Shown here piece after piece: positions 1 through 51,147 of a stretch of 64,000 bases of DNA (position 1 is its first letter; every line of letters starts with the position of its first letter). This DNA comes from Candidatus Levyibacteriota bacterium (GTDB taxonomy: Bacteria > Patescibacteriota > Microgenomatia > Levybacterales > UBA12049), in contig JAJDCH010000012.1 in the NCBI GenBank assembly GCA_029260905.1, forward strand, positions 2,249 to 66,248, in the 5' to 3' direction. The notes under the pieces were generated by a model. The model saw only the letters and a list, made by a program, of their open reading frames with translations, made no database searches and was not told the origin of the DNA. A program made the position numbers and the translations under genes.

Positions 1-2475
1 TGGCTGCTTGACTCTTATTCTCGCATCTTTTCTTGCTGACAGTCCCATCTCAACAATTTTTCTAACTATTTTCATATCATTAATCAGTTTTGAGTTTTGG
101 GTTTTGAGTTTTGAATCTGACAACGGCCAATCAACCAAGTGCACTGATTCCTCTTCAGTCAGATTTTTATAAATTGCATCTGATATAAACGGCGCAATTG
201 GTGCAAGCAGCTTACAAAGAGTTGTCAAAACTTCATAAGAAGTGGAATAAAATGCACCCTTATCATCCTCCCCAGTCGCGCTTGGCCCAACCCTATCCCT
301 ACTTCTCCTGACATACCAAGTTGAGAAATCATCAACGAATTTTTTGATGAGGTCAATAGCACTGACAGTATCATAACTATCCAAACTTTTTGTAGTATCT
401 TCTATCAAATTATTAAGAAGTGCCAAGATCCACTCGTCCAAAACGTTTTGAGTTTTGAGTATAGAGATTTGAGTTTTTGGATTCCAGGAATCCAGGTTCG
501 CATAAGTTACAAAAAAATTATAAGTATTCCAAAGAATAAGCATAGTACCTCTGATTTGCGATTTATATGCTTCCTCTGAAATCAAGATATCCTCACCCTT
601 CATCACAGGCGATCCAAGCAAATAAAATCTCAATGCATCCCCACCGTACTTATCAAGCATCTCCCGAGGATCTGGATAATTTTTAAAATTTTTACTCATT
701 TTTCTGCCATCTGTTCCAAGTATCACGCCCTCAACCAAAACATTTTTAAATGAAGGAGATTTATAAATCGCAGCTCCAATCACATGAAGAACATAAAACC
801 AAGCTCTGATCTGACCTGTATATTCAGCAATAAAATCAGGAGGAAAAAAATCATCTAATTTTTCATCCTTTTTAAACGGAAAATGCCGCTCTGCAAAAGA
901 AGCGGATCCTGCCTCAATCCAACTATCCAAAACCTCACTTACTCGCTTTGCATCCTTGCCACACTTTTTACACTTAACCATTACCTCATCGATATCAGGC
1001 TTATGAAGCTCAGACACCTTTCTACCTGACGCCTCTTCAAGCTCTTTTATAGATCCTGGAACAAACCTCTCCCCACACTTACATTCCCAAACAGGAACAG
1101 GAGAACCCCAGTATCTATTGCGAGAGATATTCCAATCTGGTGCATTTTCCAAACTTTTTAAAAATCTTCCATTTTTAAAGTGTTTTGGATACCAACCAAT
1201 ATCAAAGTTTGTTTTTTTCATCAGAGGCTTGAGATCTTGAACATTTACAAACCATGCATCAATTGGCGCATAGTAAAGCCTTGTATGACACCTCCAACAA
1301 AGAGGAACTCGGTGAGTGTAATCAACTTTTTTATAAACAAGACCACGCTTTTCAAGATCTTCATCAACTGCCTTGTTGGCTTTGAGATAATACATACCAC
1401 CAAAAATAGGCACCTCATCTTTAACATGTCCCTCCTCATCAAGATGAAGCTCCATGTGAACACCCTCTTCTTTCATCAGCTTCATATCCTCTTCACCATA
1501 AGCAGCAATTGTCACAACACCTGTCCCATCTAGTGCTGTCACAAACTCTCCTCCCAGTATTTCAAATACTTTTCCTTTTGCACGATTGCTGTAGTAATCA
1601 TAGTGCGGAACAAATTTTTTACCAATCAGATCTTTACCCATTAATCTCCCAACAATTTCGCATTTCCCATCAAGCATCTTTTGTGTTGTCTCAGCCAAAA
1701 TATAAAATTCTTTTCCTTGTTTAACTTTTATGTATTTCATTTCAGGATTAACAGCAAGAGCAGGTGTTGCTATCTTTGTCCAGGGAGTTGTTGACCATGC
1801 AAGAATATAAGTATCTTTTTCACCTTCTAGCTCATACTTATATGTTGTAGATGGATCAACAATGTCTTTGTAATTATCTGCATCCATCGCCACTTCAAAA
1901 TTGGAAATAGGTGTTACGCAATGCGGACAATAAAGAGAAACCCGAAGCCCCTTGTACACAAATCCCTTGTCATACATTTGCTTAAAAACCCACATCACAG
2001 ACTCCATATAATTCTTGTCCCAAGTTTTATATGCATTTTCAAAATCAACCCATCTGCCAATCCTATCCACATACCATTCCCAATCACTTGAAACCATATT
2101 TACATAATGCTTGCACTCGTCAATAAATTTCTTAACACCTACCACTTCTTCAATATCTCTCTTGCTCTGAATTTCAAGCTCCTGCTCAACTTTATTTTCA
2201 ATCGGAAGTCCATGCCCATCCCAACCCCAAACACGTCTCACTCTATATCCCTTCATAGTAAAATATCTACCAAATAGATCTTTGGGAAGACTTGAAAGAA
2301 GCGATCCATAATGAGGCATACCAGTTACGAAAGGGGGTCCGTCCAAAAAAGTCCATGAACCATTTGGTGCATCTTTTTCAACTGATTTTTCAAAAATCTT
2401 ATTTTTTTTCCAGAATTTAAGTATTTCATTCTCCAGATCAGGAAAACTAACTTGCGGTGAGACAGACTTAAACAT
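1..2475 (-). CDS. ileS: Isoleucyl-tRNA synthetase, type 2 (archaeal/eukaryote-like); partial, C-terminus lies beyond the window start
   Basis: Hand translation of the minus strand from the ATG at complement 2473-2475 gives MFKSVSPQVSFPDLENEILKFWKKNKIFEKS...FLDGPPFVTGMPHYG. That matches the IleRS type-2 N-terminal region (FYDGPPFATGLPHYGH-like), plus WSTTPWT and a KMSKS-type GRKMSKNFKNYPDP motif. The ORF is missing from the track because it runs off the window edge. Confidence 0.8.
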   Translation of the reverse strand, partial: MFKSVSPQVSFPDLENEILKFWKKNKIFEKSVEKDAPNGSWTFLDGPPFVTGMPHYGSLLSSLPKDLFGRYFTMKGYRVRRVWGWDGHGLPIENKVEQELEIQSKRDIEEVVGVKKFIDECKHYVNMVSSDWEWYVDRIGRWVDFENAYKTWDKNYMESVMWVFKQMYDKGFVYKGLRVSLYCPHCVTPISNFEVAMDADNYKDIVDPSTTYKYELEGEKDTYILAWSTTPWTKIATPALAVNPEMKYIKVKQGKEFYILAETTQKMLDGKCEIVGRLMGKDLIGKKFVPHYDYYSNRAKGKVFEILGGEFVTALDGTGVVTIAAYGEEDMKLMKEEGVHMELHLDEEGHVKDEVPIFGGMYYLKANKAVDEDLEKRGLVYKKVDYTHRVPLCWRCHTRLYYAPIDAWFVNVQDLKPLMKKTNFDIGWYPKHFKNGRFLKSLENAPDWNISRNRYWGSPVPVWECKCGERFVPGSIKELEEASGRKVSELHKPDIDEVMVKCKKCGKDAKRVSEVLDSWIEAGSASFAERHFPFKKDEKLDDFFPPDFIAEYTGQIRAWFYVLHVIGAAIYKSPSFKNVLVEGVILGTDGRKMSKNFKNYPDPREMLDKYGGDALRFYLLGSPVMKGEDILISEEAYKSQIRGTMLILWNTYNFFVTYANLDSWNPKTQISILKTQNVLDEWILALLNNLIEDTTKSLDSYDTVSAIDLIKKFVDDFSTWYVRRSRDRVGPSATGEDDKGAFYSTSYEVLTTLCKLLAPIAPFISDAIYKNLTEEESVHLVDWPLSDSKLKTQNSKLINDMKIVRKIVEMGLSARKDARIRVKQP
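84..118 (-). repeat. Degenerate tandem heptamer tract (TGAGTTT-like, about 5 copies) inside ileS. Coding strand reads AAACTCA/AAACCCA repeats, translated in frame as KTQNSKLKTQ-like
   Basis: Direct reading of tcagttt tgagttt tgggttt tgagttt tgaatct. Confidence 0.6.
450..477 (-). repeat. Degenerate tandem heptamer tract (GAGTTTT GAGTATA GAGATTT GAGTTTT) inside ileS
   Basis: Direct reading; same AAACTCA family as the tract at 84-118 and 4573-4586. Confidence 0.55.
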
Positions 2476-3682: not shown

Positions 3683-3699
3683 TAATTTTAGTAATTGAC

Positions 3700-3900
3700 A
3701 AAATCTCAAAACGGGATTATATTAAACAAAATTAAATTGGTCAAAAGGTCCGAAAGCTGTGTGATTCAGCGCTATGCCGTAACTGTTAAAGTCAGATCGC
3801 AGACTTTTGATCTCAATTACCATCCTTCGAGCAAAGGAGAGGCTAGCTAAGTTTAGACTTAACACAGACTTCTCACTTGAGAAGTCTTTTTTTACTTCTC
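3700..3900 (+). ncRNA. Candidate cobalamin (B12) riboswitch-like structured leader with an intrinsic-terminator expression platform
   Basis: The 259-nt untranslated region sits upstream of a putative corrinoid-binding cluster. It has partial matches to core B12-riboswitch elements: GGTCCGAAAGC vs GGUG-AAA-UCC, GCG..GCCGTAACTGT vs GC.G..CCGCCACUGU, and AAGGAGAGGCTAGC vs the B12-box AGCCAGGAGACC. Matches are imperfect and no covariance-model search was run. Confidence 0.3.
3866..3893 (+). terminator. Rho-independent terminator: 9-bp perfect stem AGACTTCTC / GAGAAGTCT, 4-nt loop, then a T7 run
   Basis: Read directly from the sequence. It lies 50 nt upstream of the 3942 start codon, consistent with a riboswitch or attenuator OFF-state terminator. 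Confidence 0.55.
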
Positions 3901-3941: not shown

Positions 3942-4568
3942 ATGTTTGCACAAATTAAAAAACTATTTAAACAACTTCCAGTTCTTGTCTGGATATCAAT
4001 TCTGTTTTTCGGGTTGGCAATTGGACTCTACGCTACTCCTACAAATACTGATAAAAAATCAGATACAGAAACAGAAACAATCTTTCCTTCACTTGTTCCC
4101 TCTATTACTGATGAAAAAAACACTAATTTTGATTATTTAAAAACAACAAATAATGCACAGTCAATCACCCCTACAATTGTAGTTTCAAATTCTTCTAATG
4201 GAGAATCTCAAACAACTGCAAAAAATCAGAATGAGGCCAAAAATGAATCAGGAAATAGTCAGCAACAATCAAAAATTTCAGTAACCCTATCTATTAATGG
4301 CTCCTCAGTTGGTGCTGTTAGCCTTGATGAGGGATCAAACCAATGCAACGTGCTATCGAATGCAAAAGATCAAGGAAAAATATCAAGTCTTGATATGCGC
4401 TACATTTCAAGCCTTGGAACAAATGGTGTTTATAAAATAAACGGGATTGGAAAAGACAACGCCATCTGGTGGGTTTATAAAGTAAATGGCGCATCACCAA
4501 GCCAAGGATGCAGTCTGGTTAAAGCAAACAATAACGATAATGTTGATTGGGAATATGTTGGAAATTAA
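3942..4568 (+). CDS. Secreted/TM-anchored low-complexity protein with a C-terminal DUF4430-like (transcobalamin beta-domain-like) region
   Basis: N-terminal TM helix; S/T/N/Q-rich linker; C-terminal GVYKINGIGKDNAIWWVYKVNGASPSQGCSLVKANNNDNVDWEY, recalled from memory as DUF4430-like. Confidence 0.4.
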   Translation: MFAQIKKLFKQLPVLVWISILFFGLAIGLYATPTNTDKKSDTETETIFPSLVPSITDEKNTNFDYLKTTNNAQSITPTIVVSNSSNGESQTTAKNQNEAKNESGNSQQQSKISVTLSINGSSVGAVSLDEGSNQCNVLSNAKDQGKISSLDMRYISSLGTNGVYKINGIGKDNAIWWVYKVNGASPSQGCSLVKANNNDNVDWEYVGN

Positions 4569-4572
4569 TATG

Positions 4573-4586
4573 AAACTCAAAACTCA
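4573..4586 (+). repeat. AAACTCA x2 heptamer repeat at codons 2-5 of the secreted-protein gene
   Basis: Direct reading; the same heptamer occurs in ileS. Confidence 0.7.
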
Positions 4587-4619
4587 AATTTATAAAAATA
4601 ATCTTTGTCTTTTGCTTAC

Positions 4620-4647
4620 CACTTTTTGCTTATCACTTTTTGCTTAT
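4620..4647 (+). repeat. CACTTTTTGCTTAT x2 (14-mer) perfect tandem repeat, preceded by a partial copy, in the signal-peptide coding region
   Basis: Direct reading. Confidence 0.75.
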
Positions 4648-5938
4648 CACTCCTGTTTTTGCTGAATCTACTACTACAGATATTGCTCTTGATTTCTTAA
4701 GATCCAAGCAGGACTCTACCGGAAGAATAAATACTGGCTTTTCTGCTCCTTCTCAATGGTCTTCAATTGCTTTTGCATCCCAAAATATTAACATTTCAGA
4801 TGTCAAAAATCCCGATGTATCACTTCTTGATTTTCTCAAAACAGATATTCCTATTGATCCATCAGCAGCAACAGATTGGGAAACAAAAATTCTAGCAATT
4901 GTTGCAATTGGTAGTAATCCATCAAATTTTAACGGTGAAAACTTTATTAAAAACCTTGAAGACTTTCACACTGATGGACAAATTGGTGATATATGCTCTT
5001 TAAATGACGATATCTTTGGACTACTCGCACTCACCGCAAGCGGAAAGTTGGCTGACAACAAGATAAAACAAGACGCACTTAATTTTATTATTGATAATCA
5101 GGACGAAACTAATGGAGGATTTGGTTTTTCTGCTCCTGGCTGTGAATGGTATAACACATCAACAGACATGACAGCAGCAGGACTTCACGCTTTAGTATCA
5201 GCCAGGGATAGCGGTATGGAAGCAGCAGGGTTTGATGATGCTATAGATCAGGCAAAAAATTATCTTTTTTCAAACCAAAATTCTGATGGAGGATTTGGAT
5301 ATTCGGAGAAATCTGATTCAGACACAACTGGCTGGGTAATAATTGGTCTAAATGCTGCAGGTCTTAGTAGCTCAACTGAGGCAAAAAATGCCAAAAGCTG
5401 GCTTCTTACACAACAATCAGAATCAGATGGAGGTTTTACTGCTTTTGATTGGGGAACAAGTGAATTTGTATCCAATGCCACAACTACCTCTCATGCGATC
5501 CTTGCCATAAACGGTAAAACATGGATTTCCAAAATTTATCAAGCATCAACTGATGACATCATCCCAACTTCTACTCCCTCTCCGACAAATATGCCAACCC
5601 CTAGTCCAACTCTGACGCCAACACCAACAGCTACTCCTACAACATTAAGCACCACCAACAGCAACACAACCAATATCTACAATTACTCATCTGGCTTGGG
5701 ACAAGACACAGACAACATCAATAAGTATCTACAAAACCAAACACCAAAAGAACAAATCAATCAAGTTCTCGGAGAAAAAACAAAAAATGAAAATCATGAA
5801 GAAATAAAGATTGAAAATTTAAATAGTGGACTCAGAAGAATCTTTGCTGAAATATTCTTTTTTCTCGGAATAGCAACTTTAAGTTTTTATATAGGCGGTT
5901 TAAATCAAAAGAAAAAAGTTTCTCAAAAGTTGTTATAA
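4640..5938 (+). CDS. Secreted alpha/alpha-toroid protein with prenyltransferase/squalene-cyclase-type repeats (transcobalamin alpha-domain-like), ending in a P/T-rich linker and a C-terminal TM anchor. The 5' end is frameshifted relative to its ATG and signal peptide
   Basis: Repeated QxxxGG(F/W) motifs: QDSTGRINTGF, QDETNGGFGF, QNSDGGFGYS, QQSESDGGFTAF. The PTPSPT linker is followed by a hydrophobic C-terminus. The track's start is a TTG at 4640 and leaves no signal peptide. Confidence 0.55.
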   Translation: MLITPVFAESTTTDIALDFLRSKQDSTGRINTGFSAPSQWSSIAFASQNINISDVKNPDVSLLDFLKTDIPIDPSAATDWETKILAIVAIGSNPSNFNGENFIKNLEDFHTDGQIGDICSLNDDIFGLLALTASGKLADNKIKQDALNFIIDNQDETNGGFGFSAPGCEWYNTSTDMTAAGLHALVSARDSGMEAAGFDDAIDQAKNYLFSNQNSDGGFGYSEKSDSDTTGWVIIGLNAAGLSSSTEAKNAKSWLLTQQSESDGGFTAFDWGTSEFVSNATTTSHAILAINGKTWISKIYQASTDDIIPTSTPSPTNMPTPSPTLTPTPTATPTTLSTTNSNTTNIYNYSSGLGQDTDNINKYLQNQTPKEQINQVLGEKTKNENHEEIKIENLNSGLRRIFAEIFFFLGIATLSFYIGGLNQKKKVSQKLL

Positions 5939-5945
5939 TATTCTT

Positions 5946-6470
5946 ATGAAAAACATTTTAAAAAATCCTATTATTCCAATCTCCATTATCTTTATCGCTG
6001 TAATCGCACGTCTTATTCCACATGTTCCAAATTTTGCGCCAATTGCTGCAGTTGCGCTTTTTGGGGGTACATACCTTCCCAAAAAATTTGCATTCATAAT
6101 TCCACTTCTTGCAATGTTTTTTTCTGATATTTTTCTTGGGTTTCATTCAACCATGATTTATGTATATGGAAGTTTTGTTTTGACAACTTTTATTGGTCTC
6201 TGGATTAGGAAAAATAAAAAAATCTCAAATACGATCCTCGGAACATTTGGCGCATCTATTCTTTTCTTTCTAATTACCAATTTTGGTGTCTGGGCTAATG
6301 GAATGTACTCAAGAGGTATTGAAGGGCTAACACAAAGCTATATCATGGCGATTCCTTTTTTTCGTTTCACCCTTGCAGGGGATCTTTTTTACACAGGCAT
6401 CTTTTTCGTGGGATATGAATTAATCTTAATGTACTCCCAAAAGTATGCCAAAGCAAACGCCAAAGCTTAA
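5946..6470 (+). CDS. Small polytopic membrane protein (about 5 TM). A possible ECF-type substrate-capture component, but unverified
   Basis: Hydrophobicity pattern only, plus its position inside the putative corrinoid-uptake cluster. Confidence 0.35.
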   Translation: MKNILKNPIIPISIIFIAVIARLIPHVPNFAPIAAVALFGGTYLPKKFAFIIPLLAMFFSDIFLGFHSTMIYVYGSFVLTTFIGLWIRKNKKISNTILGTFGASILFFLITNFGVWANGMYSRGIEGLTQSYIMAIPFFRFTLAGDLFYTGIFFVGYELILMYSQKYAKANAKA

Positions 6471-7395
6471 AAAACTAAGAATCTTATCTCTTCTTCCCGC
6501 AGCAACTGAAATCATTTCCCTACTTGGTCTTTCAAAAAATCTTGTCGGTATAGGACATGATTCTTACTACCCCAAATCAGTAGCTGGACTCCCAAAAGTC
6601 ACAAGTACGATAATAACAAATCAGATGACAAGTCTTGAAATTGACCGAGCTGTCAAAAGAAGCATTCACAAAGGCCAGAGTATTTTCCATATTGATAAAA
6701 AGATAATTTCCAAACTTTCCCCAAATCTTATATTTACCCAGGAACTATGTCCGGTCTGCGCGCCATATCTAAAAGATGTTAAACAAATTGTAAAAAAAAT
6801 AGAAACAGATGCTAAGATTGTTTCTTTCTCTCCTACTACGATTTCTGATATTTTTGAAAATATCAAAACAGCTGGGAAAATAATAGGAAGATTAAAAAAA
6901 GCTAACAAGCTAATAAAAAATCTTAAACTTAGAATTAAAAAAGTAAAAGATAAAACAAGATCCTTGAAAAGACCGAGTGTAATAATAATTGAATGGATAG
7001 ATCCTATCATGTCCTCTGGGCACTGGACTTATGAGATGGTTGCTGTAGCAGGCGGGAGACTCTTTCTTTCTGAAAAAGGCGGCAAATCCAAAAGGATTCT
7101 CTGGGAGGATGTTTTGAAACTTGATCCTGATATACTTATCATCGCCCCTTGCGGATTTGATATTAAAAGATCAAAAAAGGAAATTGGGATTATTAAAAGT
7201 AAAAAAGGATTTAAAAATTTGAAGGCATACAAAAATAAAAAAATTTTTTATATGGACGGTGACTCATATCTGACGCGTCCAGGCCCCAGAATAGTAGATG
7301 GCATCGAAACCCTTGCCAAGATATTACACCCAAAAATTTTAAAAGAAAACACACAGAAGAGCACAGAGAAAAATAAATTAAGAATACCTTTGTAA
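6445..7395 (+). CDS. Periplasmic/solute-binding protein of the BtuF/FhuD (TroA-like, class III) family, a cobalamin or siderophore binder
   Basis: N-terminal LRILSLLPAATEIISLLGLSKNLVGIGHDSYYP resembles the BtuF motif (SLAPSNTEILFALG..VVGVS). The length is typical of the family. Confidence 0.6.
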   Translation: MPKQTPKLKKLRILSLLPAATEIISLLGLSKNLVGIGHDSYYPKSVAGLPKVTSTIITNQMTSLEIDRAVKRSIHKGQSIFHIDKKIISKLSPNLIFTQELCPVCAPYLKDVKQIVKKIETDAKIVSFSPTTISDIFENIKTAGKIIGRLKKANKLIKNLKLRIKKVKDKTRSLKRPSVIIIEWIDPIMSSGHWTYEMVAVAGGRLFLSEKGGKSKRILWEDVLKLDPDILIIAPCGFDIKRSKKEIGIIKSKKGFKNLKAYKNKKIFYMDGDSYLTRPGPRIVDGIETLAKILHPKILKENTQKSTEKNKLRIPL

Positions 7396-23867: not shown

Positions 23868-25106
23868 TTATTTACCATTGGTTATTTTTTCAATTGCTTT
23901 AAGGGCAATCGCGCTCTCATTCCATTCCTCCTCACCTCTTCCGTAATTCATAGATTTCTCATGCCCCTTTCCTGTTAACAGAACAATATCGCCCTTTTTT
24001 GCAATTGATACAGCAAATAATATCGCTTCTCTCCGATCTTTTATTTTATAAACATTTTGAACTTTACGTTTTGAGCTTTTTGTTCCAAGTTCTATCTCAT
24101 CCATTATCCCACCCGCATCTTCACTACGCGGATCCTCAGACGTCAGAATAATAACATCAGCATTCTCAGCTGATATCTTTCCCATTTCAGATCTTTTATA
24201 TTTATCTCTCTCACCTGCCGCTCCAAAAACATGAATAAGTCTACCATTGGTTATTTTTTTTATCTCAGGAAGTACACTTAAAAATGAATTTGGTGTATGT
24301 GCAAAATCATTTATAATCTTAAATTCATTGTCATAGACAATTTCCTGTCTGCCTTTTGGTAAAGAAAAAGTCTTAATCCCATCTCTTATCAAGACGTCAG
24401 GTATACCAATCTGTCTAGCAACAGAAATAGCAGCAAGACAATTATAAAGATTAAATTTCCCAATTAAATTTGTTTCAAAAGGAAAAACATCGGGATTTAC
24501 ATCTGAGTCATTTTTCAAACCATAAGTAATCATTTTTCTTTCCTTAATTCCTAGTTCATAATTCATAATTCTTTCATAGGATTTATCATCTTTATTAATA
24601 ATTGCAGTTTTTGCGGCTTTTAAAAGCCTGGCCTTTACATCAACATATCTATCATATGTTTTGTGATAATCTAAGTGCTCATTTGAAACATTGGTAAGTA
24701 CTCCGATCTCAACCGGTATTCCAAATGCCCTATACTGATCAAGAGCATGTGATGTTAACTCCAACACGACATATTCAACACCCATATTTTTTGATTTTCT
24801 CAGATATGATTGAAGAGCAAATCTCCCGGGAGTTGTGACATGATAGCCAATATCTGATGACTTATCTTTAATTGTCGCGCCAATTGTCGAGATAAGCGAA
24901 ACGTCTTTTCCTGAATTAGATAAAATATGAAAAATCAAATTTGCAGTTGTTGTTTTTCCATCAGTTCCAGTAACACCAATAACTCTTAATTTTCTGGATG
25001 GAAACCAGTATATAAGATTGGCAAGTAACGCCTGACCGAGATGATACTGATTCTTTGCCTGTTGCCACATAGTTTGCTTGTATAGTATATCAAAATTCAA
25101 GCACAA
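23868..25106 (-). CDS. murE: Mur ligase, most likely UDP-MurNAc-L-Ala-D-Glu:diamino-acid ligase MurE, with a shortened N-terminal domain
   Basis: P-loop VIGVTGTDGKTTTANLI and the MurE-like TSEDPRSED (DNPR-type) motif. It sits directly downstream of ftsI. Confidence 0.65.
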   Translation of the reverse strand: MCLNFDILYKQTMWQQAKNQYHLGQALLANLIYWFPSRKLRVIGVTGTDGKTTTANLIFHILSNSGKDVSLISTIGATIKDKSSDIGYHVTTPGRFALQSYLRKSKNMGVEYVVLELTSHALDQYRAFGIPVEIGVLTNVSNEHLDYHKTYDRYVDVKARLLKAAKTAIINKDDKSYERIMNYELGIKERKMITYGLKNDSDVNPDVFPFETNLIGKFNLYNCLAAISVARQIGIPDVLIRDGIKTFSLPKGRQEIVYDNEFKIINDFAHTPNSFLSVLPEIKKITNGRLIHVFGAAGERDKYKRSEMGKISAENADVIILTSEDPRSEDAGGIMDEIELGTKSSKRKVQNVYKIKDRREAILFAVSIAKKGDIVLLTGKGHEKSMNYGRGEEEWNESAIALKAIEKITNGK

Positions 25107-25134
25107 ATATGGAATTTTGTGTTAAAATAGATTA

Positions 25135-25470
25135 ATGAAACCGATTATTGAGTATGATGATTTTGTCAAGCTTGACCTACGGGTGGGCACTGTAGTTGCA
25201 TGCGTTGAAAAAGAGGGATCTGATAAGCTTTTGAGATTAACTGTCGATTTTGGTGAAGATGGAACTCGAAATGTTTTGTCAGGAATTAAGCAATGGTTTA
25301 AACCAAAAGATCTGATGGACAAACAATTTGTCTTTGTTTTTAATCTTGCTCCACGCCGGATGATGGGTGAAGAATCAGAAGGCATGATCTTGGCAGCAGA
25401 TGGAAAAGATGGAAAGCCAGCCCCCCTCAAACCCAAGTCCAAAGTCCCAAATGGAGCAAAAATCCTTTAA
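25135..25470 (+). CDS. tRNA-binding protein (CsaA/YgjH, Myf/EMAP-II-like OB domain)
   Basis: DDFVKLDLRVGTVVACVEKEGSDKLLRLTVDFGEDGTRNVLSGIK...ESEGMILAA is collinear with CsaA. Confidence 0.8.
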   Translation: MKPIIEYDDFVKLDLRVGTVVACVEKEGSDKLLRLTVDFGEDGTRNVLSGIKQWFKPKDLMDKQFVFVFNLAPRRMMGEESEGMILAADGKDGKPAPLKPKSKVPNGAKIL

Positions 25471-27737: not shown

Positions 27738-28648
27738 ATCTTTTCAAAAACTCTTAATTTTGCACTTCTGCTTCTTGGATTCATATCGATCTCTTCATCT
27801 CCTGGCGCGATTGGTTTTTTTGTAACTATTATCCCCTTTCCTATCTCTGCCCATTTTTTGAATTCATTCTTTACTATCCTATCCTCAAGTGAGTGAAAAG
27901 AAATAATTGCTATCCTACCACCTTCTTCAATCACATCAAGTGCTCTTGGCAAAAAATCTCTTAAACTATTCAACTCATCATTTATGGCAATCCTCAATGC
28001 CTGAAATACTTTGGTGGCTGGATTTATTTTCCCGCCACTGCTTCTTACCACTTTCCTAACAATCTCTGACAGTTCCCAAGTTGTCTCTATCTTTTTCACT
28101 TGACGGGCGCTGACAATAGCGCTAGCAATGGCTTTGGCATGATAATCTTCACCAAGTTTATTAAAAAGCTCATACAATTCTCCTTTCGTTAAAATATTTA
28201 CTAAATCTCCTGCTTTGACATTAAGATTTCTATCCATCCGCATATCAAGAGGGCCAAGATTCATAAAACTAAAACCCCGCTCACCCTCATCAATCTGATG
28301 GCTAGAAACCCCAAGATCAACCAAAACTCCTGCGACCGGATCAAATTCATTCTCTTTTACAATTTTTTCTATGTCTTTAAAATTCCCCTGAACCAAAATC
28401 AAATTCTCACCTATTCTTAAATCTTTAATCTTAAATCTTAAATCTGTTTCCGAATAATCTAAAGCGTCTTGATCCAGATCTATACTCAAGACTTTTCCAC
28501 CTCGCTCTAAAATTTCCCCCGTGTGTCCTCCTCCTCCTAAAGTGCCATCTACATAATGCTTCTCAGGCTTGACTTTTAATAAATCTATCGTCTCCTTCAA
28601 AAGTACTGTTTTATGAAAAAAACCAGCTTGTCTATTGTTATCAGTCAT
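27734..28648 (-). CDS. rsmH: 16S rRNA (cytosine1402-N4)-methyltransferase RsmH (MraW)
   Basis: HKTVLLKETIDLL...YVDGTLGGGGHTGEIL. Confidence 0.9.
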   Translation of the reverse strand: MTDNNRQAGFFHKTVLLKETIDLLKVKPEKHYVDGTLGGGGHTGEILERGGKVLSIDLDQDALDYSETDLRFKIKDLRIGENLILVQGNFKDIEKIVKENEFDPVAGVLVDLGVSSHQIDEGERGFSFMNLGPLDMRMDRNLNVKAGDLVNILTKGELYELFNKLGEDYHAKAIASAIVSARQVKKIETTWELSEIVRKVVRSSGGKINPATKVFQALRIAINDELNSLRDFLPRALDVIEEGGRIAIISFHSLEDRIVKNEFKKWAEIGKGIIVTKKPIAPGDEEIDMNPRSRSAKLRVFEKI

Positions 28649-31263: not shown

Positions 31264-31542
31264 CTATTTTTTAGGCTTTTTGGGAACTGGTTTTAAGACT
31301 GGATCTGAGCCTTCGGGACTAACAGGATAAAAAACACCCTTCAACACTAGTCCTCCTGGATTCTTTGCGGCTTTAGCGAAAAGATTTCTTACTCCTCTTT
31401 CATTCATTGGCGTCGTATCTTTTGGCTTCTTCCTTAACCCTTCTGCTCTTCTTTCCTGACCAAAAGTCATAGCACTTGCAGCATCAGCTCTTGAATCCCT
31501 GAAGCCTCCATTGATTACCTCTCCCATACCTATATTATACAC
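31264..31542 (-). CDS. Hypothetical small basic protein (K/P-rich C-terminal tail)
   Basis: ORF with good spacing between glyQS and recO; no recognised motif. Confidence 0.3.
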   Translation of the reverse strand: MYNIGMGEVINGGFRDSRADAASAMTFGQERRAEGLRKKPKDTTPMNERGVRNLFAKAAKNPGGLVLKGVFYPVSPEGSDPVLKPVPKKPKK

Positions 31543-31567: not shown

Positions 31568-32113
31568 TTAGTTAATTTTGGTGAAGATTCTGAGGGATTT
31601 GAGACGACGCTCGAGTATGTTTTCTATAAATTGCTCTGAATCAAATGCTTGAGCAAACTGCTGCTTATTCCAGTACCCCAAAAGGCTCAAAAGGCTTACT
31701 TCAAAATCAGCCACAATCTTCTCGATATTATTTTGATTATCAGATAATCTATCAAGTGTGTCAACTAGCAACTCAAACACTTCCATATTTTCCTGATTTT
31801 CAGGACAAAGCCCATCAACGATCTCACAAAGATGATAACTTGGAGGAATTTTATCCATATTATTTTTTATCTCAGCAAAATTATTAATTGTTATCGCCTC
31901 AGTCAAAATAGGATATGAATTGCCTTGATAAAGAGTGAAGACACCATGATTGAGAAGCTCTATATGGCCTGCCCTGCGGCTTGTGATCTTACGTACACCT
32001 GTCCCGCGGACAAAAATCTTACCATGAGTTTTGGTAAAAATAGTAAGAACACGATCCTGATCCTTATAATTACGTCTTCTTATAACCACTCCCTCTGTTT
32101 TGAAATTCTTCAT
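31568..32113 (-). CDS. recO: DNA repair protein RecO (short form)
   Basis: N-terminal OB-fold pattern MKNFKTEGVVIRRRNYKDQDRVLTIFTKTHGKIFVRGTGVRK matches the RecO N-terminus. Confidence 0.65.
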   Translation of the reverse strand: MKNFKTEGVVIRRRNYKDQDRVLTIFTKTHGKIFVRGTGVRKITSRRAGHIELLNHGVFTLYQGNSYPILTEAITINNFAEIKNNMDKIPPSYHLCEIVDGLCPENQENMEVFELLVDTLDRLSDNQNNIEKIVADFEVSLLSLLGYWNKQQFAQAFDSEQFIENILERRLKSLRIFTKIN

Positions 32114-37777: not shown

Positions 37778-38857
37778 TCAAAAAAGATTATTAACAACTA
37801 TTTGAAAACTTTTCTTAAAATTTTCAAATTTAAATTTGCTCGAATTCACCACTGCGCCTTCAGGATTTAGCTTTAGTCCATTAAATTTTTTAATTGCTCC
37901 AATTAGTGATTCTTTGGTTTGCTTTTCAAATAAGATTCCTGTTTTATTATCAATTACAATCTCTCTTGCGCCACCTTTTTCAAAAGCAATAATAGGTTTT
38001 CCAAAAATTTGGGCCTCAATCATCACCAATCCCAAATCTTCATATCCAGGAAAAATAAGCGCCTTACAGCTTCGATAATACTTAATAAGCTCTTCATCGC
38101 TTACTTTTCCAACAAATTCAACAGTTGGTCCTGATATTTTTTTATAATACTCAATATCACCATCACCAACTATCTTGAGGTTAATTCCAAGCTCATTTGC
38201 AGCAGCGATTGCAAGATCAACTCTCTTGTACTTTGTAAACTTCGAAAGCCTGGAAACAACCACGAAGTAATTTCCTTCCCTTGATTCTTGATTCTTGATT
38301 CTTGATTCTAACGTTACTGGTGGATAAACAACATCTGCTTCACGTTTGTAATATTTCTTAATCCTTTTTCTAACCTCCTCTGAGATGGCAACAATCTGGT
38401 CAGGCCTTTTTGATGCCTGCAAATCCCAAATTCTCAAACCATTAATAATTGGTTTTGATAATAAACGCAAAATCTTATTTGAAAAATATTCATCATAACC
38501 ACTCCAAAGATAACGAGTGGGAGTAAGCATATAACAGAGGTGCTTTGTCTTTCCTGTTGTTATTATTCCTTTTGCAGACTCGGACGTAACAGATATAACT
38601 AAATCAAAATCTTTAAAATTAAAAGATTCAAAAGCAAATGGCATAAATGGCGCAAAAAATTGATGATAATTTTTTGCAAAAGGAATATTTTGCAAAAAAG
38701 ATGGATTTACCTTAAAAACTTTAGCCCAGGAAGCCTTGTCTTTGTCATAAACAGATGTAAAAAGAGGAGCATCAGGATACAATTTATGAAGTGCCAAAAG
38801 AACACGTTCTGCTCCTCCCCATTTATTTACCCTATCATAGACAAAAGCTACACGCAT
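37778..38857 (-). CDS. GT4-family (GT-B) glycosyltransferase containing an in-frame heptamer repeat
   Basis: C-terminal EX7E region EDLGLVMIEAQIFGKPIIAFEKGGAREIV. GAATCAA x4 encodes LESRIKNQESRE. Confidence 0.8.
   Translation of the reverse strand: MRVAFVYDRVNKWGGAERVLLALHKLYPDAPLFTSVYDKDKASWAKVFKVNPSFLQNIPFAKNYHQFFAPFMPFAFESFNFKDFDLVISVTSESAKGIITTGKTKHLCYMLTPTRYLWSGYDEYFSNKILRLLSKPIINGLRIWDLQASKRPDQIVAISEEVRKRIKKYYKREADVVYPPVTLESRIKNQESREGNYFVVVSRLSKFTKYKRVDLAIAAANELGINLKIVGDGDIEYYKKISGPTVEFVGKVSDEELIKYYRSCKALIFPGYEDLGLVMIEAQIFGKPIIAFEKGGAREIVIDNKTGILFEKQTKESLIGAIKKFNGLKLNPEGAVVNSSKFKFENFKKSFQIVVNNLF
38281..38308 (-). repeat. GAATCAA x4 (plus strand TTGATTC x4) perfect tandem heptamer inside the GT4 gene
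   Basis: Direct reading. Confidence 0.85.
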
Positions 38858-38901: not shown

Positions 38902-40077
38902 CTACTTACTACCCGCTACCTCCTTATAAATATTTATTGTTTGTTTTGCCATTTTTTCCCAGGAATACTTCCTAACCCATCCCAGACCCGAGTCAATAAT
39001 TTCTTTTTTCTTTTTATCATCAAGTACATAGACTTCATTCATCTTTTTTGCTATATCCCCAACTGAATTTGGATCAAAATAAAATGCGTGAGTAGAAAGA
39101 ACCTCTCTAAAAACAGCAATATCAGAAACTGCAACCAGAGAACCATGGGATATTGCCTCAACGGGAGTCAAACCAAATCCTTCAGCAAGAGATGGAGAAA
39201 GTAAAGCAATTGAATTCTCATAAAGTCCATAGAGCTCAGCATCTTTTACATTATGTTTAAACACTATGTTTGTGTAATTCTCTTTGTCGATTTTCTCTTC
39301 AAGTTTTTTATAAAAATAATCATCTTTTCCAACAAGAATAAGCATCACATCTTCATTAATATTCGTTCTAAAAACAGAAAATGCTCTTATCAATTTTTCC
39401 AGATTTTTATGCGGATATGCATTCCCAACATATAAAAAGTATGAAGTATTATGTATTAAGTATTTAGTGTTATTTTTTCTTTCCCCTGATGCTTTATGCT
39501 TGCTACTTGATACTGCATAGCCCACTCCCTCATATGTCACTGCAATCTTATCCTCATGAACCCCAAGTGTCTCAATAAGATCTTTCCCAACCGTCTCAGT
39601 TGGAACAATTATTTTCTTTGCTTTATCTACTGCACGTTTTACAACATATTTATAACCAAGCCGCTTGAGATTATACAAAGAAAGGGGAAGAGTGGATGCC
39701 TTGCCTGTCGGGAAATGGCTTATGATCAGATCGTGAATTGTAATAACATACGGCTTTTTATAAAAAGCAGGTGCAGAAAAATATGGAAAGTGCATCAGGT
39801 CAAGCTCCTCTTTATTCAAAATCATGGGAAATCTAACCTGTTCTTCAATTGAATGCCAACGAATATCAGCAATAACAATTTTCCAGTTTTTACTAATTCC
39901 CAATTCCTTACCTGCCTTGCCGGCAAGTAGGTTCCTTATTACTTCATAATCTCTACTGCGGATAAACAAAACATATTCATTGTCTTCATCAATCTTTTGC
40001 AATTCACTAACTAGATTTCTGATATATCTACCAACCCCAGTCTGTCCCCACAGCCTGCAATCAATGCCTATTTTCAT
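38902..40077 (-). CDS. GT4-family glycosyltransferase
   Basis: AEGFGLTPVEAISHGSLVAVSDIAVFREV (EX7E). Confidence 0.8.
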   Translation of the reverse strand: MKIGIDCRLWGQTGVGRYIRNLVSELQKIDEDNEYVLFIRSRDYEVIRNLLAGKAGKELGISKNWKIVIADIRWHSIEEQVRFPMILNKEELDLMHFPYFSAPAFYKKPYVITIHDLIISHFPTGKASTLPLSLYNLKRLGYKYVVKRAVDKAKKIIVPTETVGKDLIETLGVHEDKIAVTYEGVGYAVSSSKHKASGERKNNTKYLIHNTSYFLYVGNAYPHKNLEKLIRAFSVFRTNINEDVMLILVGKDDYFYKKLEEKIDKENYTNIVFKHNVKDAELYGLYENSIALLSPSLAEGFGLTPVEAISHGSLVAVSDIAVFREVLSTHAFYFDPNSVGDIAKKMNEVYVLDDKKKKEIIDSGLGWVRKYSWEKMAKQTINIYKEVAGSK

Positions 40078-41013: not shown

Positions 41014-41453
41014 CGTAAATCTTACTCCTTATATCCTACATCTTCATAAACCCGATTTAGTTTCTCAGCTATACTTTTCCAGGTATATTTTTGCTCCACC
41101 AACTTCCGTCCATTTTTACTTATTCTTTCATAAAGTTTTTCATCTTCCAAAAGACTTATGGTTTTTATTGCCAAATCAATTGATAGATCAGATGCCATAA
41201 TGTCCTCATTATCTTTTGCGCCAAGACTATCTGCGCTCATTTTTGTGGTTATAACTGGTGTTCCACAACTCATGCTTTCCAAAATCTTATAACTTGTCCC
41301 ACCACCAACTCTTATTGGAGCAAGCAAGACATCTGCTTTCTGAAAAATCTTCTCAGTTGGCAATTCAGAATTTTTTTCATCGAACAAAATATCTGGATCA
41401 TTTGTTAGATTTTTAATTGAGGTAGAAATTTTTCTCCCCACAACCCACAACTG

Positions 41454-41478
41454 GATCTTTGATCTTTGATCTTTGATC
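41454..41478 (-). repeat. GATCTTT x3.6 tandem heptamer (coding strand GATCAAA), sitting at the frameshift point
   Basis: Direct reading. Confidence 0.85.
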
Positions 41479-41563
41479 TAATTTTTGGCCAGATTTCTTC
41501 AATTATGAATTTTACAGAATCTCTATTTTGTATCCATTTAAAATCTCCAATAAATAGTATCTG

Positions 41564-41596
41564 CTTTGATCTTTGATCTTTGATCTTTGATCTTTG
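41564..41596 (-). repeat. CTTTGAT x4.7 tandem heptamer (second tract of the same unit, translated as QRSKIKDQRSKQ)
   Basis: Direct reading. Confidence 0.85.
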
Positions 41597-42232
41597 GAGA
41601 AACACGAACTTTTCCGTATCCACTCCATTTGAAACAACTTCAGCGCTAGCTCCTGCATCCCTCATCACTTTTTTATCTTCTTCAGAAACAGCAATCAATT
41701 TGTCGGCTTTTTTCCACGAAGCTTCTTCTTCTTTTTTTATTTTTGCGATATCAATATTCAAAAATGGTCGCATAAAAAAAGGCGCTTTGTCAACAAATCT
41801 CTGATAAACCTGATATTCGATATTGTGCTCTGCCAAAACAATTGGAATCTTTGTTGTGGGCAGATTGTGCATGACATAAAATGTTTCAATGTGAATAAGA
41901 TCATATTTATTTTCTTTCAACTCTTTCTCAATCTCTTCTTTAAGCAAAAAATTGGTATGTCCGATTCTTAGAAAAGAATCATTACCCTTTATTGAATAAA
42001 AAACATTTTTCAAAGACCACTGTCTACCTGTCGCAACTGAAATTACTTTTTTACAAATTTTCTGAAGAACTTTTATATCATTATCAGTTATCGTTTGCCT
42101 AAATCTTTTCTCACAAATAAGTGTAATTTCGTGTTTTTTCGACAACTCTTTTAAGAGATTAAATAGCCGCACTTGTCCACCAGAATACAAAGGGTATGGA
42201 AAATAAGATGAAACAACAAGTATCTTCATAAA

Positions 42233-49995: not shown

Positions 49996-51147
49996 TCATT
50001 TATCGCTTCCTGCTGCTTTTTGTATAACCCTAAGTGTTTCCTTTGCTGTTTTTTCCCAACTAAATTTCTTTATCTGTTTTTTTCCTTTTTCTACCAATTC
50101 TTTTCTCAAATCCTTATCATCAACTAGCCTTTTGATCTTCTCAGCTATATCATCAACATCTTCTGGATCTACGTAAAGCGCTGCATCTCCCCCAACTTCA
50201 GGCAGACTACTGACATTACTTGTTATTACCGGACAACCATCTTTCATCGCCTCGAGAACAGGAAGTCCAAATCCCTCGTAGAGAGATGGGAGGACAAAAC
50301 AGATCGCATTTTTATACAAAATACTTAAATCACGATCATCAACATTTTCAAGAAACTTAACCTGTTTTTCAATACCAAATTTTTGTGGGGCTGATAAAAT
50401 TTCTTCAAACTGCCAACCCTTCTTACCAACAATCACCAGCTCCAGATCCGCTTTGCTTAGTACTTTATACTTAACACTTAATACTTTACTGAATGCCTCT
50501 ATTAACTTTGCAATATTTTTCCTAGGCTGAAGAGTCCCAACAAAAAGAACAAAATTATTACCTATTTTATATTTTTTCTTGAAATCCTTCATATTTCCTA
50601 AATCATAAGTCTTAAAACTTAAATCATTTTTAATTCCGGGATATGTAACCACCACCTCGCTTGATGACTTTTTATACTCCCTGATTATATCATTTTTACT
50701 TGAATTACTGATTGTAAGAATACTCTTTGCATTTCGCACTGAATACTTTGTCCAACTTTTTAGTTGATGTAGGTCATTTGCATTAAAAAGCTCAGAAAAA
50801 TACAAATATGATAAATCCATTACTGATATTACCGTTGGACATGGTGAGAGTCTGGGAGCATAGTGACTGGGGCTAAAAAAAACATCAGGCTTTATCCCAC
50901 CAAAAAATAAATCCAAGGGCAACCTCCATTGTGTCCACAGCCTGCCAGGCCTTAAGACTCGGTACTTCCAATTGCCAGATTCTTTTGGCATATCAGAGAG
51001 CTGCTTATTCTTTAGATAAACAACAAAACTAATGGCTGATGGCTGATGACTGATGACTGAAAACTCCCTCAATAATTCAAACGCGTATTGTCCTATTCCG
51101 ACGCGCTTTTCTACATTTGCCTCATTTCCATCAATTCCAATTATCAT
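49996..51147 (-). CDS. GT4-family glycosyltransferase with an in-frame heptamer repeat near its N-terminus
   Basis: [36 protein letters not shown]. The tract ATGGCTG/ATGACTG x4 encodes [11 protein letters not shown]. Confidence 0.8.
51032..51059 (-). repeat. ATGGCTG ATGGCTG ATGACTG ATGACTG tandem heptamer (coding strand CAGTCAT/CAGCCAT) inside the GT4 gene
   Basis: Direct reading. Confidence 0.8.

Follow-up and report, generated by a model that had tools for sequence, protein, structure and literature searches.

A start codon and a repeat-built signal peptide in different frames at a surface-protein locus of Candidatus Levyibacteriota: a possible slippage-generated OFF allele

Background

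Bacteria of the Candidate Phyla Radiation (CPR, or Patescibacteria) are ultra-small and mostly episymbiotic, and we know of almost no account of how they vary their host- and phage-facing cell surface. Here we analyse a stretch of 64,000 nucleotides from one such organism, Candidatus Levyibacteriota bacterium (GenBank assembly GCA_029260905.1, contig JAJDCH010000012.1, positions 2,249 to 66,248 of the forward strand; henceforth the window), and in particular a gene near its left end that codes for a predicted exported protein with an alpha/alpha-toroid domain. This gene lies between those for a DUF4430 protein and a DUF6580 membrane protein, and its start codon and signal peptide are found in different reading frames, with two short tandem repeats in the stretch that separates the ATG from the mature protein. 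An earlier reading of the bare sequence (the original prediction) had interpreted this arrangement as a repeat-controlled frameshift that phase-varies. Below we describe the locus, its relatives and a second broken gene in the window, and weigh the explanations that might account for them. Positions are those of the window, and the features are collected in Table 1.

A toroid gene out of frame with its start codon

Read from the ATG at 4570, the sequence gives 31 codons (MKLKTQIYKNNLCLLLTTFCLSLFAYHSCFC) before it terminates at the TGA at 4663-4665. The toroid open reading frame (ORF) lies in the +1-shifted frame (frame 2), which is open only from 4574, because a TGA at 4571-4573 overlaps the ATG. 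Frame 2 reads NSKLKFIKIIFVFCLPLFAYHFLLITPVFA up to a predicted cleavage site that is followed by ESTTTD, and thus presents a good signal peptide that lacks a start codon: the first ATG, GTG or TTG in this frame is the TTG at 4640, from which only MLITPVFA is left before the cleavage site. The deposited protein (P0001, 432 aa) is called from this very TTG, and therefore starts inside the signal peptide and is leaderless. The frames are as the original prediction had them, with the ATG in a different frame from the toroid ORF and running into a stop at 4663. As TGA ends 20 of the 53 long ORFs in the window, it is a genuine stop codon and the code is standard; a reading by an alternative genetic code was accordingly rejected.

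The frame-2 leader has the features of a Sec-type signal peptide cleaved by signal peptidase I. Both it and the four leaders reconstructed below display a lysine-rich start, a maximal 10-residue hydropathy of 2.2-3.0 and a V-x-A motif before the glutamate, comparable to what is seen in the homologues, and its cleavage site aligns with the alanine-aspartate junction in about 120 of them. The ORF downstream of the leader shows no decay, with 64 of 69 conserved columns kept (0.928, against a homologue mean of 0.945).

Two repeat systems, a heptamer array immediately after the ATG and a 14-mer array further downstream, precede the cleavage site (4663/4664); the unit length of neither is a multiple of three, and each unit is free of stop codons whichever frame is read. 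The original prediction described the heptamer tract correctly but had the 14-mer as two copies plus a partial one, whereas Tandem Repeats Finder (TRF) delineates three copies, of which the first carries one mismatch. This 14-mer array is the top-scoring tandem repeat of the window and, being 42 nt long, keeps the frame. In silico editing of the sequence showed that several changes in copy number bring the ATG and the toroid ORF into one frame: loss of one heptamer yields a 453-aa ORF with the leader MKLKFIKIIFVF..., gain of one 14-mer yields 460 aa with the leader MKLKTQIYKNNLCLLLTTFCLSLFAYHFLLITPVFA, gain of two heptamers likewise yields 460 aa, and loss of two 14-mers yields 446 aa. Gain or loss of copies thus toggles the gene between an ORF of 446-460 aa and a stop after 31 codons. 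Hence, the break indeed coincides with the repeats, and single slippage steps in either array suffice to give a textbook Sec leader, as had been claimed, except that the two steps lead to different leaders rather than to one and the same. Any 1-nt deletion right after the ATG also restores the toroid frame.

A repeat-built leader across the clade

The nearest relatives of the toroid protein are about 60% identical to it and all belong to the Patescibacteria/Microgenomates. The original prediction had called for a comparison of orthologous loci and had named an internal, leaderless start in the orthologues as part of an outcome that would speak against it. All of the roughly 120 homologous proteins have an ATG and a Sec leader ending in ...(V/Y/H)A, cleaved before D(S/T)V.DN..FLKSKQD, which aligns with frame 2 of the window. 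Their real start is an ATG that abuts or overlaps the stop codon of the DUF4430 gene, in the same place as the ATG at 4570, which is thus the conserved start of the orthologues; this bears out the claim that the start codon and the signal peptide of the window gene have come to lie in different frames. Among the homologues found, the window gene is the sole member that is genuinely out of frame, the relatives, about 130 in total, all being in frame.

Several apparent exceptions were rejected upon examination of the DNA. Where calls carry an N-terminal extension (MEIYRIM...), this represents the last part of the DUF4430 gene translated in a different frame. The calls P0052 and P0085, considered as further OFF alleles, begin within the signal peptide, but their DNA (L161 and L162) has the true ATG in frame, so that they are gene-caller artefacts. 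Lastly, the cases flagged as possibly OFF by an automatic leader classifier are DUF4430-toroid fusions or mis-anchored matches and not frameshifts.

The n-regions of many homologues display a 7-residue periodicity (e.g. MKFKVQSSKFKV, MNFQFSIFNFQ and MNIKYQISNIKF...), and those that do so group with the window protein in a neighbour-joining tree of the mature domains. At the level of DNA, the leaders of this clade consist of an A-rich heptamer array after the ATG, which encodes the n-region, and a T-rich heptamer or 14-mer array, which encodes the hydrophobic core (Table 1). The n-region arrays mostly have 3.4-4.9 copies among the relatives and align in register, with invariant A, A and T columns every 7 nt. 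Within any one species the array copies are almost perfect, yet the unit changes from one species to the next; such a pattern marks ongoing turnover by expansion and contraction (concerted evolution) and not an old, static sequence. Five of the eight exact heptamer arrays in 276 kb of DNA from 57 close loci fall within this leader of about 100 nt (binomial P = 3e-7). The comparison of orthologous loci thus shows that the repeat tract recurs across the clade and that the leader arrays of all the relatives are in frame.

Heptamer arrays were also observed in the first 3-40 codons of ORFs shortly downstream of the toroid gene in two of the loci (L001 4943-4972, CTTTATA in 4.3 copies; L034 4737-4772, TTCTACT/TTTCTAT), where they encode hydrophobic segments. 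Repeat-built N-terminal membrane segments may therefore not be confined to the toroid gene.

Placing the shift within the leader

The 3' flank of the heptamer array of the window (TCAAATTTATAAAAATAA) is identical at 17 of 18 positions to the corresponding flank in L002, where it is read AAA-TTT-ATA, i.e. in the frame equivalent to frame 2. As the flank matches in frame 2, the shift is placed inside the heptamer tract and not in the frame-preserving 14-mer array, which is suggestive of the heptamer tract as the site of the frameshift. In a more specific scenario, for which there are arguments on both sides, a four-copy array would have shed exactly two units in the window. With two heptamers added, the leader of the window becomes MKLKTQNSKLKFIKIIFVF...PVFA, a peptide of 36 aa with a pattern similar to that of its neighbours, whose leaders have 35-37 aa; along with the L002 flank, this speaks for such a loss. 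Against it stand the length of the present leader, which at 94 nt is not shorter than the 93 nt of some relatives, and the MAFFT alignment, which aligns the leader region without a gap.

A glycosyltransferase gene split at a heptamer array

A GT4-family glycosyltransferase gene on the minus strand of the window is likewise split. Its two ORFs hold the N- and C-terminal domains of a single enzyme and overlap exactly at an AGATCAA array. In silico addition of one AGATCAA copy results in an intact ORF of 404 aa, in which the match to GT1 becomes continuous and rises from 43 to 67 bits, and Glyco_trans_1_4 covers positions 2-142 of the 142 of its model. The probability that two random breaks would both fall within heptamer repeats, which make up about 0.5% of the window, is about 3e-5. 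When copy-number rescue was attempted on 34 heptamer arrays, the GT4 array of the window alone was rescued. A second AGATCAA array (4.7 copies, 41564-41596) lies in frame in the same gene.

No further split genes were found in the window beyond the toroid and GT4 genes. RecO (31568-32113) and a 92-aa ORF next to it, considered as a third broken gene, are distinct genes, and the ORF has a TTGACT...TATAAT promoter of its own; an ORF at 25122-25442 on the minus strand is spurious, the real gene there being that for a tRNA-binding-domain protein on the plus strand. The 92-aa ORF (31264-31542, minus strand; MGEVINGGFRDSRADAASAMTFGQERRAEGLRKKPKD...) codes for a basic protein, directly follows recO with a near-perfect promoter, and has no Pfam match. 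Ninety-four percent of the window is in open frames of at least 150 codons, and 126 homopolymers of at least 7 nt fall within intact frames. The data are thus not indel-prone, which counts against the alternative, allowed for in the original prediction, of a simple assembly error at a homopolymer.

Period-7 repeats in the window and its relatives

Exact tandem repeats of period 7 are in clear excess in the window: 21 were observed with at least 2 copies (7 expected), 8 with at least 2.5 copies (0.17 expected) and 3 with at least 3 copies (0 expected). The window holds no exact tandem repeats of period 8, 10 or 11, and the period-14 repeat of the toroid leader is the only one of its kind (0 expected). 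An excess of period-7 repeats is also present in the DNA of relatives, at lower density. The arrays lie mostly within coding sequence and are translated through all three frames into heptad peptides such as SKLKTQNSKL, ESRIKNQESRE and DLRFKIKDLR. Genes that bear them include those for isoleucyl-tRNA synthetase (IleRS), a Mur ligase, RsmH and several glycosyltransferases; the AAACTCA unit of the toroid leader itself recurs on the other strand in the IleRS gene, where it is read as SKLKTQNSKL and PKTQISILKTQN.

A heptamer tract of 15.4 copies (ACTCTTA) forms the end of a contig from Candidatus Doudnabacteria (L036, 1-108). Much longer heptamer tracts thus exist in CPR genomes and can break assemblies.

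The toroid protein and its operon

The assignment of the protein to the alpha/alpha-toroids, made in the original prediction, was borne out both by Pfam matches (SQHop_cyclase_C and Prenyltrans) and by an AlphaFold2 model of the mature domain (mean predicted local distance difference test, pLDDT, of 95.6), which matches known alpha/alpha-toroids. Its relatives in the PDB are terpene-cyclase-like; the model superimposes on transcobalamin with template-modelling scores of 0.62-0.64, while terpene cyclases rank first and the fold is a generic one. We predict that the protein is exported and surface-anchored, because it combines the Sec-type leader with a Pro/Thr-rich linker and, at the C-terminus, a transmembrane helix that ends in a basic tail.

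The gene order DUF4430-toroid-DUF6580 is kept in the relatives, and in two of them (L164 and L165) a gene for cob(I)alamin adenosyltransferase (Cob_adeno_trans) follows. In several distant homologues (P0107, P0110, P0111, P0113 and P0117; e.g. at loci L018 and L046) the DUF4430 and toroid domains are fused in a single polypeptide, with DUF4430 at the N-terminus, and these fusions support a joint function for the two adjacent genes of the window. Upstream of the operon lies a candidate AdoCbl-II riboswitch aptamer, which was recovered by a permissive search; a scan of the window with Rfam models at the gathering threshold gave no match. Cobalamin riboswitches above threshold occur at the equivalent place in four orthologous operons (L014, L006, L012 and L015). 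Based on these two observations the operon is very probably regulated by B12, and it is very probably concerned with corrinoid capture. The DUF4430/toroid pair might then constitute a split transcobalamin-like binder, a reading for which the genomic context is provided by the riboswitch, the BtuF-like substrate-binding protein encoded further downstream and the Cob_adeno_trans genes of L164 and L165. By its naming in InterPro, the DUF4430 domain may be tied to the beta-domain of transcobalamin. A search of the PDB with a DUF4430 profile found no relative, and sequence searches of the PDB with the toroid and DUF4430 proteins gave no functional assignment.

Table 1. Features of the toroid locus and of heptamer arrays in the window and its relatives
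Feature	Position (nt)	Strand	Remarks
Promoter-like site	3695..3723	+	TTGACA-17-TATATT, 11/12; upstream of operon
Candidate AdoCbl-II (RF01689) riboswitch aptamer	3741..3810	+	28.9 bits vs Rfam gathering score 36.5; full model 1-81; E = 5.7e-5 (281-nt search)
Terminator-like hairpin, then T-run	3866..3887	+	In 5' leader; possible expression platform
DUF4430 gene	3942..4568	+	208 aa; own signal-anchor-like N-terminus; conserved upstream partner; stop TAA 4566-4568, 1 nt before ATG 4570
Conserved toroid ATG	4570..4572	+	Shine-Dalgarno-like GGAA 4560-4563 upstream; orthologues start at ATG abutting/overlapping DUF4430 stop (TAAT-ATG or ATGA)
Out-of-frame 31-codon reading	4570..4665	+	ATG to TGA 4663-4665
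Heptamer array (AAACTCA) x2.3	4573..4588	+	TRF; 1 or 4 copies in frame, 2 or 3 out
Signal-peptide coding sequence, toroid frame	4574..4663	+	No usable start; NSKLKFIKIIFVFCLPLFAYHFLLITPVFA; predicted cleavage between VFA and E
14-mer array (TTTTGCTTATCACT) x3.0	4610..4651	+	TRF; 42 nt; encodes hydrophobic core FCLPLFAYHFLLIT; h-region homologues in L081, L166, L164, L165
Mature alpha/alpha-toroid protein	4664..5938	+	Pro/Thr-rich linker 5564-5644; C-terminal transmembrane anchor 5840-5902, basic tail
DUF6580 membrane protein	5946..6470	+	Conserved downstream partner
Peripla_BP_2 (BtuF/IsdE-like) substrate-binding protein	6445..7395	+	Follows DUF6580 gene in the window
Split GT4 glycosyltransferase	41022..42229	-	ORFs 41405-42229 and 41022-41450; array (AGATCAA) x3.7 at 41454-41479
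Other heptamer arrays	86-114 and 445-477	-	3.9-5.1 copies; in coding sequence
Other heptamer arrays	24545-24571, 28415-28445, 38280-38309, 39437-39472, 51028-51060		3.9-5.1 copies; in coding sequence
n-region heptamer arrays of relatives			L164 AAGTTCA x4.9; L166 AAAGTCA x4.6; L002 AATATCA x4.6; L089 AATTTAC x4.9; L093 AATTTTC x4.0; L085 AATTTCA x3.4; L081 AAAACTT x2.9; L163 and L165 imperfect, ~5 copies
h-region arrays (relatives and window)			L164 CTTGCTT x3.6; L165 imperfect, ~5 copies; L166 14-mer x2.4; L081 14-mer x2.3; window 14-mer x3.0

Comparison with known repeat-controlled genes

The original prediction likened the arrangement to that of the opa genes of Neisseria, in which CTCTT pentamers form part of the sequence that codes for the leader peptide of a surface protein, so that the number of copies decides whether the ATG and the mature protein share a frame. 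The likeness holds insofar as the repeat lies within the leader coding sequence. The opa genes differ in that their unit is a pentamer, present in many copies, in that there are multiple paralogous loci, and in that switching at high frequency is documented for them, in a host-adapted pathogen. A closer analogue is neuO, where a heptamer stands in the 5' part of the coding sequence.

The neuO gene of E. coli K1 codes for a capsule O-acetyltransferase and contains the heptamer AAGACTC, whose slippage has been measured; the full-length protein is made only if the copy number is divisible by 3, copy numbers range from 3 to 53, and 65.6% of genomes are in the OFF state (PMC13001214). It shares with the window gene a heptamer directly after the start, a copy number that modulo 3 sets full translation, and a unit that is open in all frames and thereby specifies a heptad peptide. 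The two units are even one base apart in the same register (the repeat of AAGACTC contains CTCAAGA and is read KTQDSRL; that of AAACTCA contains CTCAAAA and is read KLKTQNS). This similarity probably arose by convergence on a unit that remains open and hydrophilic whichever frame it is read in; there is no evidence of homology. In the window the heptamer specifies the n-region, and another array the h-region, of a signal peptide, whereas the repeat of neuO encodes an N-terminal extension of a cytoplasmic enzyme; moreover, the window has 2.3 copies (its relatives mostly 3.4-4.9), and only one OFF allele has been seen.

Heptamers have been described as the most abundant long class of simple sequence repeats in many prokaryotes, with polymerase slippage suggested as their origin (as summarised in PMC4679880). 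In Haemophilus, heptamer tracts of 1-7 units vary between strains and sometimes leave a frameshifted ORF (PMC2651432). Heptanucleotide repeats of H. influenzae, such as those of the hmw promoters and the AACAACC tract of a TonB-dependent receptor gene, resemble those of the window in being found at surface or uptake proteins. They differ in being mostly promoter-located or longer, in coming from a cultured pathogen with strain collections, and in that they do not build a signal peptide. The TAACTGA repeats of Beggiatoaceae and cyanobacteria are another instance of over-represented period-7 repeats, as in the window and its relatives; unlike the window arrays, which are mostly coding, of many different units and read in three frames, they have one fixed sequence and are mostly intergenic or in 5' untranslated regions.

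In the open-access literature we found no paper that links CPR or Patescibacteria with phase variation, phase-variable genes, slipped-strand mispairing or simple sequence repeats, in agreement with the original prediction that slipped-strand phase variation had not been described in this group. The mechanism of a slippage switch is itself already known; what is unusual is that two heptamer-based arrays make up an entire signal peptide, and that this design is conserved in a whole clade.

A slippage-generated OFF allele and its alternatives

The reading that we favour, though our confidence in it is evenly divided, is that the toroid gene is a real and recent OFF allele, generated by slippage at a turnover-prone heptamer tract. 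The A-rich heptamer array encodes the basic n-region and the T-rich heptamer/14-mer array the hydrophobic core of the leader; in the proposed mechanism, a slipped-strand change in the copy number of the heptamer array right after the ATG would have created the frameshift. With one or four copies the ATG would be read into MKLK(TQNSKLK)FIKIIFVF...PVFA, with cleavage before E, and with two or three copies it would not. At the present two full copies, ribosomes starting at this ATG would terminate after 31 residues, and the exported toroid protein would not be produced. Further slippage could restore the gene, so that the locus may act as an on/off switch.

Several observations weigh against this reading. 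The assignment of the shift to the heptamer, as opposed to the 14-mer or a 1-nt indel, comes from a single alignment of flanks whose DNA is of low complexity, and in L163 a similar flank is translated in a different frame. The tracts are short, with 2.3 and 3.0 copies (2.9-4.9 in the relatives, against 3-53 in neuO), and high-frequency slippage typically takes more than five units. OFF alleles number 1 of 12 among the array-bearing leaders and 0 of 110 among the others (Fisher P = 0.098). The clusters of relatives that are at least 90% identical (two of them array-bearing, with 2-3 members) contain no repeat-linked N-terminal copy-number variants. Neither P0001 nor the proteins on its two sides gave a second copy in exact look-ups, and the P0001 cluster has a single member, so that no copy-number heterogeneity is on record. 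The rescue test was not significant, as random-position controls were rescued in 12 of 454 cases through fusions at gene junctions. Both broken genes come from this one assembly, with 0 of about 26 arrays broken in the others. Finally, like arrays are present in essential genes (those for IleRS, a Mur ligase and RsmH), which argues for a general mutational bias over designed switches.

Frequent, adaptive phase variation is accordingly not demonstrated. Of what the original prediction proposed in this regard, the repeats of non-triplet unit at the break and the restoration of frame in single steps stand; the short tracts, the absence of another OFF orthologue and the lack of variants in the near-identical clusters tell against the remainder. 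Hence, we consider it rather unlikely that the locus is an evolved contingency locus, the leader repeats of which have been selected for high-frequency ON/OFF switching, be it to evade phages or hosts or to save cost when B12 is plentiful, with the GT4 gene as a second such locus. Such selection is consistent with the recurrence of an array at one position across the clade, where it is far over-represented, with repeat units that are open in all three frames, with the undecayed toroid ORF, and with the nature of the broken genes, a surface-anchored protein and a glycosyltransferase being classic targets of phase variation. Yet the other 11 array-bearing orthologues are all ON, as opposed to the 65.6% of neuO genomes that are OFF, and the brevity of the tracts, the lack of copy-number variants in near-identical strains and the arrays in essential genes count against it as well. 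In its broadest form, the proposal would be that the toroid leader arrays of the clade, along with those of the glycosyltransferases, are maintained as a mutational on/off switch for a B12-riboswitch-controlled, surface-anchored, transcobalamin-like protein, and that they are the first simple-sequence contingency loci in CPR, caught OFF in the window; this we offer as a speculation, and a doubtful one.

An ordinary one-off inactivating mutation would make the toroid gene an incipient pseudogene, in which a 7-bp duplication of AAACTCA or another small indel had struck a dispensable gene and the repeats were incidental. Two heptamer copies are the exact product of a single tandem duplication, removal of one copy leaves a normal 29-aa leader like that of P0002, and two-copy heptamers are not rare in the window while OFF states are rare in the family. 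Against this, the clade-wide array architecture makes the repeats non-incidental, the 1.3-kb ORF downstream is intact with its conserved residues kept, and the GT4 gene is also broken at a heptamer array, the joint occurrence of which by chance has the low probability given above. We therefore regard such a mutation as improbable.

Somewhat less probable still is an artefact of assembly or consensus calling, by which in-frame and perhaps mixed alleles in the population were represented by a wrong or minority copy number at both arrays. The restriction of the broken genes to one assembly would be explained in this manner, and populations of mixed copy number can confuse consensus calling; but the arrays are only 16-42 nt long, below the length of reads and of typical k-mers, there is no other broken gene in the window, RecO and other suspect pairs being intact, and the many homopolymers stand in intact frames.

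That the toroid protein is expressed as is, either by a +1 ribosomal slip (e.g. on A-AAA-A at 4579-4582, giving MKLKLKFIKII... in a toroid frame that is open right up to the ATG) or from a non-canonical start (ATA 4592, ATA 4598 or ATC 4601), is very improbable, as no orthologue needs a frameshift and there is thus no conserved mark of a programmed event, no stop or rare codon stands beside the slippery site as in slips of the prfB type, the leader RNA has no stimulatory structure (z = 0.13), the ATA and ATC codons are not preceded by a Shine-Dalgarno-like sequence of the kind found before the ATG at 4570 (GGAA), and TGA is a genuine stop.

Implications

If heptamer tracts slip appreciably in these organisms, they would offer tiny genomes an inexpensive means of switching, at random, a surface protein that scavenges a cofactor as well as enzymes of glycosylation. 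Such genes would then be systematically miscalled by annotation pipelines, in the manner of the deposited toroid protein with its start inside the signal peptide. The construction of a signal peptide from one A-rich and one T-rich short array would also be a case of repeat expansion creating or remodelling targeting sequences. If the window holds only a single frameshift allele, the value is a smaller one: the gene model is corrected, and period-7 repeats in these genomes call for caution as hot spots of frame errors.

Strand composition of the window

The GC skew is negative throughout positions 1-64000, ranging from -0.08 to -0.24 per 4 kb, and the cumulative skew falls steadily; nearly all genes from 7.7 kb onward lie on the minus strand. 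A disparity in strand composition has been reported for UBA1400 Microgenomates genomes, and the skew of the window resembles it (PMC7143001).

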